From the NCBI RefSeq assembly GCF_003334315.1, contig NZ_QOWR01000010.1: a stretch of DNA of 64,000 nt. The stretch is one strand, 5' to 3'. The position numbers were made by a program, and so were the translations under genes. How positions within the stretch are numbered: position 1 is the stretch's first letter; every line of letters starts with the position of its first letter. The notes below the pieces were generated by a model. That model was not told the DNA's origin, ran no database searches, and was given only the letters and a program-made list of their open reading frames with translations. Positions 66-2,689 of the stretch are shown piece by piece. This stretch comes from Escherichia coli. Lineage in GTDB: Bacteria > Pseudomonadota > Gammaproteobacteria > Enterobacterales > Enterobacteriaceae.

Positions 66-389
66 ATGTCCCATCAGAAAATTATTCAGGATCTTATCGC
101 ATGGATTGACGAGCATATTGACCAGCCGCTTAACATTGATGTAGTCGCAAAAAAATCAGGCTATTCAAAGTGGTACTTGCAACGAATGTTCCGCACGGTG
201 ACGCATCAGACGCTTGGCGATTACATTCGCCAACGTCGCCTGTTACTGGCCGCCGTTGAGTTGCGCACCACCGAGCGTCCGATTTTTGATATCGCAATGG
301 ACCTGGGTTATGTCTCGCAGCAGACCTTCTCCCGCGTTTTCCGTCGGCAGTTTGATCGCACTCCCAGCGATTATCGCCACCGCCTGTAG
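66..389 (+). CDS. soxS: SoxS, AraC/XylS-family superoxide-response transcriptional activator (107 aa)
   Basis: ORF track 66..389; protein MSHQKIIQDLIAWIDEH... recognised as SoxS; ATG start, TAG stop at 387-389. Confidence 0.95.
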   Translation: MSHQKIIQDLIAWIDEHIDQPLNIDVVAKKSGYSKWYLQRMFRTVTHQTLGDYIRQRRLLLAAVELRTTERPIFDIAMDLGYVSQQTFSRVFRRQFDRTPSDYRHRL

Positions 390-391
390 TT

Positions 392-1978
392 TTATTGCCC
401 GCGCGTTAACTCCCGCGCGGGTAATTGCTCCATCCATTGCATAAACACCTGCGGCGGCATCGCCTTCGCAAAGAACCATCCCTGGCAATAGCGCACGCCG
501 CGTTTGCGCAGCCAGTTAACCTGCTCCTCAGTTTCGACGCCTTCAGCGATCGTTTTTAACCCCAGGCTGTGCGCCAGCTCGATGATGTGTTCCGCAATCA
601 AATGACTGGTTTTGTGGGTGGTCAGCGTTTCAACAAACGATTTGTCGATTTTCAAAATATCGACATTCAATGATTTAAGGTTATGCAAGTTAGAGTAGCC
701 AATACCAAAATCATCAATTGCCACTTCGTAACCTGCCTGGCGGAAAGCCAGAATAATCGGCGTCATTTTTTCGACATCAAGAAATGCATGCTCAGTCACT
801 TCAAATTTAATTTGCTGCGGACGCACCGCGTATTGCTCTGTTTTCTGATTGATTCGCGCTATCAACCGTGACGTATGAAAATCGGAGGCCGACAGGTTAA
901 TAGAAACATAGCGATCTGCATGTGTTGCCAGGTAATCGCCCAGATCGCGGAAGACATTATCAATAACATAATCAGTTATCTGTTCTATCATCCCCTCCTT
1001 TTCTGCCAGCGGAATAAACTCTGCCGGATTCATTATTTGCCCCTGCTCACCAGGCCAACGTAACAACGCTTCAGCGCCGATACATTTTTCTGTTTTGATA
1101 TCGATTATTGGCTGGTAATAAAGACAAAGTTGATGTTTTTCGAGGGCGCGTTGCAATTTACGTTTGGGAGATAAATAGTTTTGTCGAATACGTAGCCAGA
1201 GTAATAGCAGAACAAGACTCCCCAAAATACCGGCGGGCAACGCAAAAATAAGATGATTATAAAAATGGGTTATAAGACGTTGATATGAAGTCGCAACAAT
1301 GGCTGCAATTGGGCGTTTTGTCGAATAAACTGTCGCATATAAATAGCCATTTCTTTGTACGGTTAAATCCTTCAAATGAATCAGCGGAGAAAACGTTGCT
1401 GCCGAGGCCTCTTTGCTTAACGAGAAAAAGGTTTTCGTCACCGTATCATACACACCCCATTGCAATGTCGGGTCATCAGACATCACTTCACTCCAGAAGA
1501 GAGGGTTGATAACCGCCACATAATTTCCCCGCTGCATATAGGTCATTTTATAGCCAGAGAAAAAAGGCGTATCGCGGTAATAATAGATAGAAACGTTAGG
1601 TTCACGCTTATAATCGGCCGGTGCAATCGTATAGCCGTTTACAGGCGCTATCAGCGATGAGCATAAAAAATGGTTATCACGGGCATAGATCAATTCATTA
1701 ATATAAAGATAGCCACGAATAATATTCAACATTCGCTTTTGATGGGCTGGAGTGCAAACTTGCCCCTGATAGCGTTCAGCTGCATCGCTCACTAAATCTG
1801 CCTGGCGAATGACCAGCTCGGATTTATCCAGTGCCAGTTGAGCAAAGGTTCGGAGCTGATTATTCACTTCTGATTTTGCCCAAAGGAAGGCAATCCATAG
1901 CGAAAGAATGATGGGAAAGAGAACTAAAAAGATAATGCCCGGCAACGCCAGTAATTGGTGTCGTGCACGATGACTCAT
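392..1978 (-). CDS. pdeC: c-di-GMP phosphodiesterase PdeC (YjcC), membrane CSS-domain plus EAL domain
   Basis: ORF track 392..1987 (531 aa); hydrophobic N-terminus, EAL motif (GAEALLRWP); start probably the Met at codon 4; synteny convergent with soxS. Confidence 0.9.
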
Positions 1979-2407
1979 TGCTATCAATTTCCTGCCTGTT
2001 TATACCCGGCCATTGTAAGGTGAAAACCCTGGGTACCGACGTCTTTAGATAAATCTTACGGTATAAATAGCACTTTTGCCTGATTTGAAATTGATACCTT
2101 TCTAATCGTCACCTGGATGAAAATAATTCATTGATATTCAAAATTAATTTCCTACAGGAATGCAGAGGCGGCGGGAAGATATGCCCTTAATGCCACTGAA
2201 AAACCACATAATCTGTACAGCAATAAAAGTCACGGCCTAATATGGCTAACAAACAATCAATTGTGATATAGTTCACAAAATTAATGAAACAAACAGAGTG
2301 TTTCATTTTTGTGTTCTGCAAGCCCCGCGATAGCCAGAGTGTACCACGCCTCCCGTGAACAACGCCGCGCTGTCCAGGGCATCGGCTCTTTTCAGAGGAA
2401 TTGTTTG

Positions 2408-2689
2408 ATGGCTACCCTCACCACTGGCGTGGTTCTTCTTCGCTGGCAACTTCTTAGTGCCGTAATGATGTTTCTGGCCAGCACACTCAACATCCGTTTT
2501 CGTCGGTCTGATTATGTCGGGCTTGCGGTGATCAGCAGCGGTCTGGGCGTTGTTTCCGCCTGTTGGTTCGCAATGGGGTTGCTTGGCATCACAATGGCGG
2601 ACATCACCGCTATCTGGCATAACATCGAGTCGGTGATGATAGAAGAGATGAATCAGACACCGCCACAATGGCCAATGATTTTGACCTGA
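2408..2689 (+). CDS. yjcB: small inner-membrane protein YjcB (93 aa)
   Basis: ORF track 2309..2689; internal ATG at 2408 gives the 93-aa hydrophobic protein MATLTTGVVLLRW...; synteny. Confidence 0.8.
   Translation: MATLTTGVVLLRWQLLSAVMMFLASTLNIRFRRSDYVGLAVISSGLGVVSACWFAMGLLGITMADITAIWHNIESVMIEEMNQTPPQWPMILT

Follow-up and report, generated by a model that had tools for sequence, protein, structure and literature searches.

An operator-like inverted repeat conserved at the transcription start of yjcB in Enterobacteriaceae

What could a terminator-like inverted repeat do directly in front of a gene if nothing upstream of it has to be terminated? The question is raised by the spacer between the divergent genes pdeC (yjcC) and yjcB in a 64,000-nucleotide stretch of an Escherichia coli genome (contig NZ_QOWR01000010.1; hereafter, the window). 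The product of yjcB is a conserved inner-membrane protein of 93 amino acids with unknown function. The gene is among those most induced by severe acid (pH 4.4; RNA log2 5.9, ribosome footprints log2 7.7), and it is switched on by antibiotics. A preliminary description of the window placed a hairpin with a T-rich tail at 2283-2312 and suggested that it could be the 3′ end of a small untranslated RNA, an attenuator in a long yjcB leader, or a protein-binding dyad. Its account of the surroundings was accurate: pdeC is on the minus strand, yjcB begins about 96 bp downstream of the repeat on the plus strand, and no plus-strand gene upstream is in need of termination. Among the three explanations, the protein-binding dyad is the one best supported by the comparative analysis given below. 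The dyad looks like a modest regulatory element, previously unannotated. We tentatively favour, at a little under an even chance, its being a KdgR/PlaR-type operator or an Escherichia-specific derivative of such an operator, that is, a putative protein-binding site.

The inverted repeat is present in the sequence as it had been described, with coordinates that were off by about one base: the 8-bp stem is formed by ATGAAACA (2284-2291) and TGTTTCAT (2299-2306), and the tail TTTTGTG occupies 2307-2313. The stem can be extended to 9 bp by the pair A2283-T2307. At the DNA level there is a second, outer dyad of CACAAAA (2274-2280) with the same TTTTGTG, set off by a 3-nt bulge. As RNA, the hairpin is weak (-6.5 kcal/mol, two G-C pairs, z = -1.8 against shuffles), and the first 37 nt of the yjcB mRNA fold at -6.9 kcal/mol with z = -1.2. 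Perfect 8-bp inverted repeats with loops of 3-10 nt are found in 51 registers of the window, compared with 9.6 +/- 3.8 in dinucleotide shuffles; those with a T-rich tail are found in 20 registers compared with 0.43, the majority of them at real terminators. The pattern TGAAAC-N9-GTTTCA (two half-sites 9 bp apart) with at most one mismatch has two matches in the window against 0.17 expected. The exact match is the yjcB repeat; the other one (62609-62629) lies inside the metA coding sequence and is a coincidence. The energy of the hairpin alone is unremarkable, and it is conservation that makes the repeat non-random.

The position of the repeat relative to the start of transcription was determined from published data. 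The primary transcription start site (TSS) of yjcB was mapped to K-12 position 4275169, minus strand, in a re-analysis of Cappable-seq data, and was detected under antibiotic treatment only (PMC12987492). The yjcB locus in the window is reversed in orientation relative to K-12. The pdeC-yjcB spacer is 429 bp long and differs from that of MG1655 by one substitution (at 2016) and no indels. Coordinates were converted as 4277449 minus the K-12 position, which was checked across the spacer. The TSS thereby falls at 2280, so that the repeat occupies positions +4 to +28 of the yjcB mRNA, within a leader of 128 nt. Only 3 nt precede the stem, and the repeat cannot be the end of a transcript of an upstream gene.

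YjcB homologues are confined to Enterobacteriaceae. Scanning one genome per species gave 80 yjcB loci, and 78 distinct sequences were aligned. Most of the loci with enough flanking sequence have pdeC divergently upstream and/or ssb downstream. One locus of the set (L002, NZ_JAUFQN010000013.1) is a 9.5-kb contig labelled Flavobacterium paronense that is 100% identical to E. coli over pdeC-yjcB-ssb; it is almost certainly an E. coli contamination of that assembly.

The element was found in all 80 loci, and the pentamer GTTTC is invariant in 78 of 78 distinct orthologues. The alignment consensus is ATGAAACA-GAAACA-n-TGTTTCATT. Outside Escherichia the left arm reads TG[A/T/C]AAC, and in most genera the part corresponding to the hairpin loop is conserved too, as GAAACA. 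The core sequence is present in a single copy per genome, which led us to reject the hypothesis of a repeated element. The structure is not maintained in the same way. RNAalifold found no consensus pairs in the 78 sequences. The E. coli stem is paired in 77.6% of alignment cells against 76.2% in column shuffles, so that the pairing is explained by column conservation, and the covariation score (0.117) is barely above that of shuffles (0.102). The central pair A2287-T2303 is broken (TGTAAC or TGCAAC) in 32 of the 78 sequences and is never compensated. The minimum free energy (MFE) of the 5′-terminal segment ranges from 0 to -12.5 kcal/mol across orthologues; the groups of Citrobacter freundii and Enterobacter cloacae have z of -0.4 to -0.7, whereas Salmonella, Klebsiella and Kosakonia reach -2.3 to -3.5. 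What has been conserved, then, is the sequence, and the structure is not consistently kept.

KdgR and PlaR (YiaJ) are IclR-family repressors of genes for 2-keto-3-deoxygluconate, pectin derivatives and plant sugar acids in Enterobacterales. The resemblance of the yjcB element to the KdgR box was checked against the promoters of known E. coli targets. Boxes of the TGAAAC-N3-GTTTCA type with A-rich and T-rich flanks are present in the promoters of kdgK, kdgT, kduI (two sites), tabA, yiaK/plaR and eda. In the paper on PlaR its box is given as ATnTGAAACnnnGTTCAnTT, and the KdgR box is called similar. The conserved core of the yjcB element in most genera, GAAACA-N-TGTTTCATT, has the architecture of the kdgK, kdgT, kduI, tabA and yiaK operators, including their N3 spacing, which makes a 15-bp core palindrome. 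It follows that the GAAACA "loop" and the invariant arm are the left and the right half of one canonical box. The outer left arm seems to be a copy of the inner half-site made by a 6-bp tandem duplication. In E. coli the right half GTGTTTCATTTTTG matches kduI operator 2 (ATGTTTCATTTTTA) at 12 of 14 positions, which makes the supposed terminator tail a T-rich operator flank. The flanks of the E. coli arms resemble those of the kduI, kdgT and tabA boxes, and the arms themselves match bona fide half-operators. Further common features with KdgR/PlaR operators are the location in the promoter or early transcribed region and the adjacent CRP site.

For a quantitative comparison we used a palindromic position weight matrix (PWM) made from seven known KdgR/PlaR sites. 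About 55 of the 80 yjcB leaders score 13-24 bits at +9/+10, and in 64 of 79 loci the leader site outscores every other position of the locus. As for the background, no position of the 64-kb window reaches 14 bits, and 2 of 243,479 flanking positions do so in the other loci.

Escherichia has a form of its own. The inner half-site GAAACA, intact in most other genera, has decayed there (AACAGAG in E. coli), and E. coli is left with two exact half-operators, TGAAAC and GTTTCA, at N9 instead of N3, i.e., 6 bp too far apart. This form is well preserved. Of 5398 E. coli genomes, 3503 have exactly the same 61-bp core (2258-2318), and nearly all of the others have a core that is about 98% identical (one difference per 61 bp); A2283C was seen in one inspected strain, E2348/69. 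The entire spacer, by comparison, diverges to 93% across E. coli genomes. Except for that substitution, the arms are the same throughout Escherichia, from E. coli and E. albertii to the more distant members. Between them, 1-5 of the 7 nt differ from one Escherichia species to another, with 4-5 changes in the more distant species, and the bases that follow the repeat vary freely. Arms that stay invariant where the spacer drifts indicate that the N9 dyad is under selection.

Several points weigh against an operator of the KdgR/PlaR type. The matrix is based on seven sites only, and a match to it is not independent of palindromy. The best E. coli score is 10.5 bits, contributed by the right half alone, compared with 13.7-28.1 bits for the training sites (5.4-25.8 in leave-one-out scoring); other Escherichia score 2-10 bits. 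The E. coli spacer has no N3 box with at most two mismatches, i.e., the canonical box has been lost, and a single dimer of the KdgR/PlaR type should not span half-sites at N9. Conserved arms around a variable spacer, as in Escherichia, fit RNA pairing better than a dimer with fixed spacing, and so do the outer stem of Kosakonia, which is lengthened by G-C pairs, and the G.U-compatible changes in Phytobacter and some Kosakonia. The same holds for the inverse relation between decay of the inner and of the outer left half-site (Spearman -0.39, phylogeny ignored). In expression data, the iModulon that captures a deletion with kdgR in it contains kdgK, kduI, kduD, kdgT and eda and lacks yjcB, and no derepression of yjcB was seen in this kdgR-deleted strain. 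It is not named in the main text or in one supplementary file of the genomic SELEX (systematic evolution of ligands by exponential enrichment) paper on PlaR. The element also differs from known KdgR/PlaR operators in its third half-site in direct repeat and in the apparent action of CRP, which at yjcB seems to repress rather than activate. Finally, the regulated gene encodes a membrane protein without a known link to sugar-acid catabolism.

The promoter upstream of the dyad was predicted as CTAACA-15-TATAGT (Shimada 2014), and a consensus promoter scan missed it because the spacer is only 15 bp long. The block TGGCTAACAAAC is invariant within Escherichia. The extended -10 sits within the 6-bp spacer of a perfect CRP site, the sole such match in the window (0.04 expected). 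Consequently, CRP and RNA polymerase should be rivals for one stretch of DNA. With its centre at -10.5 the CRP site should be repressive, and the increase of yjcB expression in a crp deletion agrees with this. PhyloScan ranks yjcB among its top CRP predictions, and the gene is a member of the crp-KO iModulon. The effect of CRP on yjcB thus appears to be negative. Essentially all 80 species have the 15-bp core GTGATATAGTTCACA, with the dyad 8-10 nt further on. Class II activation by CRP, in which GTTTCAT would serve as the -10 element, was rejected: the key A at position 2 is missing, the CRP effect is negative, and the distance from the CRP site to GTTTC varies from 21 to 23 bp across species. 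As for a second CRP site downstream, a TGTGA half-site exists in Salmonella and some Citrobacter and is missing in E. coli. The PPTP-seq supplements contain no entry for yjcB.

The MarA motif from chromatin immunoprecipitation sequencing (ChIP-seq) lies in the same spacer, and yjcB is listed as a SoxS ChIP-exo target (PMC5684230). A related observation is that in most genera (loci L024-L081) a conserved block, (A)CTGGCGAATAAAAGAACAAA, lies directly against the CRP site. At this position (2244-2261) E. coli has TGGCTAACAAACAATCAAT, and the similar GCAATAAAAGTCACG about 25 bp upstream is the MarA ChIP-seq motif, which suggests that the mar/sox/rob box was duplicated or shifted in Escherichia.

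The data show the anatomy of the dyad, the position of the TSS, the pattern of conservation and the likeness to known operators; from these we infer a possible mechanism, including the binding of a protein to the dyad, its identity and the repression. The repeat would be primarily a DNA element, a repressor operator or a derivative of one in the initially transcribed region; +4 to +28 is a classic position for repressors. The complex of cAMP and CRP would occlude the extended -10 inside its site, as the rise of yjcB in crp mutants agrees with. A dimeric repressor on the dyad would block the binding or escape of RNA polymerase, and activation would come from MarA, SoxS or Rob bound upstream. 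In the ancestor of the enterobacteria the element may have had three half-sites, TGAAACA-GAAACA-N-TGTTTCATT, with the inner pair at the canonical N3. In Escherichia the inner left half-site would then have decayed, leaving the two perfect half-operators at N9 that were noticed as an inverted repeat. The weak stem-loop that the transcribed palindrome forms 3 nt from the 5′ end of the mRNA would be a by-product or have a secondary function.

The control region of yjcB is thus laid out as an extended -10 within the perfect CRP site and, downstream of both, an operator-like dyad conserved in Enterobacteriaceae (Table 1). This layout offers testable handles on how yjcB is silenced and released. It also hints at a possible link of yjcB to sugar-acid sensing of the KdgR/PlaR type in most genera, maybe rewired in Escherichia.

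Table 1. Features of the yjcB control region and neighbouring genes, in window coordinates
Feature	Position	Strand	Remarks
soxS	66-389	+	gene of the window
pdeC/yjcC	392-1978	-	gene of the window
MarA ChIP-seq motif gcaataaaagtcacg	2220-2234	+	in the yjcB<>yjcC spacer (PMC5684230)
-35-like CTAACA	2246-2251	+	15-bp spacer to TATAGT
CRP site TGTGAtatagtTCACA	2262-2277	.	perfect TGTGA-N6-TCACA; centre at -10.5 relative to the TSS
Extended -10 TGaTATAGT	2264-2272	+	ends 8 nt upstream of the TSS
yjcB TSS	2280	+	converted from K-12 4275169; leader of 128 nt
Left arm AATGAAACA	2283-2291	+	resembles a KdgR/PlaR-type half-operator (TGAAAC, A-rich flank); 5′ arm of the hairpin, +4 to +12
Spacer/loop AACAGAG	2292-2298	+	in the place of the inner half-site GAAACA
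Right arm TGTTTCATT	2299-2307	+	putative right half-operator; 3′ arm of the hairpin, +20 to +28
T-rich flank TTTGTG	2308-2313	+	described earlier as a terminator tail; similar to the T-rich flank of KdgR boxes; this form is limited to Escherichia
yjcB	2408-2689	+	gene of the window; followed by ssb (-) and uvrA (+)

The main rival to the operator is a stem-loop at the 5′ terminus of the yjcB mRNA that would shield the transcript from 5′-end-dependent decay (RppH, RNase E) or modulate translation, the likeness to KdgR boxes being ancestral or coincidental. We regard this as a real possibility, though a rather unlikely one. It is a better fit to the pattern in Escherichia and Kosakonia. When the entire E. 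coli leader is folded, its MFE structure contains the hairpin, independently of the remainder, and so does its centroid structure. The arms in Escherichia are invariant with a loop that is free to change; the stems of Kosakonia and Phytobacter, with the G-C extension and G.U-compatible changes already mentioned, are stronger (-10 to -12.5 kcal/mol); and each lineage retains at least one GAAAC partner for GUUUC. Under acid stress ribosome footprints rise more than RNA does, a weak hint of post-transcriptional control. The same reading fits poorly with the frozen arms and with the clades where the stem is broken. The E. coli stem is weak (z of -1.2 to -1.8), complementarity alone does not explain why the arm sequence is frozen family-wide, the broken central pair leaves -0.4 to -3.6 kcal/mol in large clades, and the covariance analysis of orthologous spacers gave neither a consensus structure nor significant covariation. 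Moreover, yjcB is not mentioned in the RIL-seq-derived lists of small-RNA candidates that we searched. The closest known analogues are 5′ stabilising stem-loops of the ompA type. As in those, the yjcB hairpin lies close to the 5′ terminus, about 3 nt into a long leader whose start has been mapped; unlike those, its stem is weak, A-U rich and not thermodynamically maintained in many orthologues, and what is conserved is the sequence and not the pairing.

The dyad could also be an operator for another regulator that binds beside CRP with long spacing, either a CytR-like protein of the LacI family or an uncharacterised dimer or tetramer reading TGAAAC-N9/10-GTTTCA. We consider this improbable. 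The outer dyad is spaced by 9-10 bp in nearly all genera, its centre (2295) is 25.5 bp from the centre of the perfect CRP site, and the N9 dyad is under selection in Escherichia. The CytR octamers are AATGCAAC/GTTGCATT; the arms AATGAAAC and GTTTCATT each match these at 7 of 8 positions, and some species (L029, L063) have an exact ATGCAAC in the left arm. An inverted octamer pair with long spacing about 25 bp from a strong CRP site would be similar to the CytR-CRP operators of deoP2, cdd and udp. However, the right arm never has the needed G, as GTTTC is invariant, and the left arm varies most (A, T or C) exactly where CytR would need a C. At promoters activated by CRP, CytR is known as an anti-activator, whereas CRP appears to repress yjcB. 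In addition, yjcB has a single CRP site that lies over the -10, with no conserved second site found downstream by inspection.

A combined action at both levels seems to us a similarly doubtful proposition. The DNA would be a split IclR-type operator at N9/N10, bound for instance by a tetramer or by a second regulator, and the RNA would form a sequence-specific 5′ stem-loop together with a pairing switch at the start codon. In such a switch the left arm AUGAAAC could pair with GUUUCAUG, in many genera a near-identical copy of the right arm over the yjcB start codon, and the mRNA would alternate between translatable and masked states. The sequence overlapping the start codon (2400-2410), GTTTCATG in many genera and GTTTGATG in E. 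coli, is a near copy of the right arm; we saw it in loci L007, L009-L013, L027, L028 and L038-L043. The pairing between the left arm and the start-codon region is perfect over 8 nt in Salmonella and weak in E. coli.

Alternatively, the repeat may be functionless in E. coli, a decaying relic of the ancestral operator kept by its overlap with constrained promoter-proximal sequence. Loss of the canonical box in Escherichia and the lack of a yjcB response in the kdgR-deletion iModulon would be expected of a relic. The invariance of the arms across Escherichia, where the 7-nt spacer and the downstream bases vary, and the much stronger conservation of the core than of the remaining spacer in 5398 genomes make such a relic quite improbable.

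The least probable reading, to which we give very little credit, is an intrinsic terminator or attenuator, with transcripts from 2280 ending at about 2309-2316 to give an RNA of about 30-35 nt or to tune read-through. The repeat does lie within the leader, downstream of the mapped TSS, so an attenuator had been placed correctly, at the 5′ extreme of the leader; in E. coli, E. albertii and one close relative the stem is followed by TTTTTGTG, and T-tailed inverted repeats are rare in shuffled sequence. What speaks against termination is, in the first place, the 9-bp stem, A-U rich and with two G-C pairs only. A terminator scan that required at least three G-C pairs did not call the repeat, and it called the yjcB/ssb terminator at 2695-2719. 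The dyad is universal, yet no more than 6 of 80 species have a T-run of at least four after the stem. Nor did we find support for a small RNA that ends at the repeat. Rfam 15 gave zero matches overlapping 2200-2330 at E-values up to 10. Among the entries covered, the Term-seq supplements list 3′ ends of the ssb terminator and none at K-12 42751xx/42752xx, yjcB being poorly expressed there, and the TRS tables have a yjcB 3′ end only at 4274721, with low yjcB expression in those conditions. Like Rho-independent terminators and leader attenuators, the repeat is a sense-strand stem-loop with a T-run within a 5′ leader; unlike them, it is G-C-poor, its U-tract is not conserved, it has no mapped 3′ end, and no anti-terminator pairing is possible upstream because only 3 nt precede the stem. 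A palindromic operator with a T-rich flank just after a TSS can mimic a terminator in raw sequence, which calls for caution.

Two other candidates at the same place were rejected. A small open reading frame from ATG 2284 (2284-2358, 24 codons, MKQTECFIFVFCKPRDSQSVPRLP, 4 nt from the TSS) is not conserved: the spacer varies by 1 nt, Citrobacter has a stop right after the start (ATG-TAA), and all four bases are found at the first position among the species. A CsrA site was dismissed as well; some genera have a GGA in the loop, but E. coli, Salmonella and Klebsiella do not.

Further along the leader, GAUAGC (2329-2334) and GCUGUC (2369-2374) form a conserved long-range helix, extended by GCC/GGC (2322-2334 with 2369-2380; RNAalifold, 27 long leaders). 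This helix explains the conserved blocks CGATAGCCAGAG and GCGCTGTCC. It shows slight covariation and is missing in the Enterobacter-type leaders of about 60 nt. On its 3′ side there is a Dcm site, CCAGG (2374-2378); according to a preprint, yjcB is among the most increased genes in a dcm deletion.

Downstream of yjcB, a strong G+C-rich bidirectional terminator (2695-2719) separates it from the convergent ssb, with sub-threshold Rfam matches only. Published 3′ ends at this terminator are K-12 4274757/8 (ssb strand) and 4274721 (yjcB strand). The yjcB-ssb spacer (2690-2790) is E. coli integration hotspot 39, where some strains carry an 18-kb antiviral island (Detocs, dGTPase) that is absent from the window. 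Just beyond the ssb stop codon, at 2755-2779, lies an A+T-rich perfect 10-bp inverted repeat, TAAAACAATA-TAACC-TATTGTTTTA, whose arms contain the KdgR-like hexamers TAAAAC and GTTTTA at N13.

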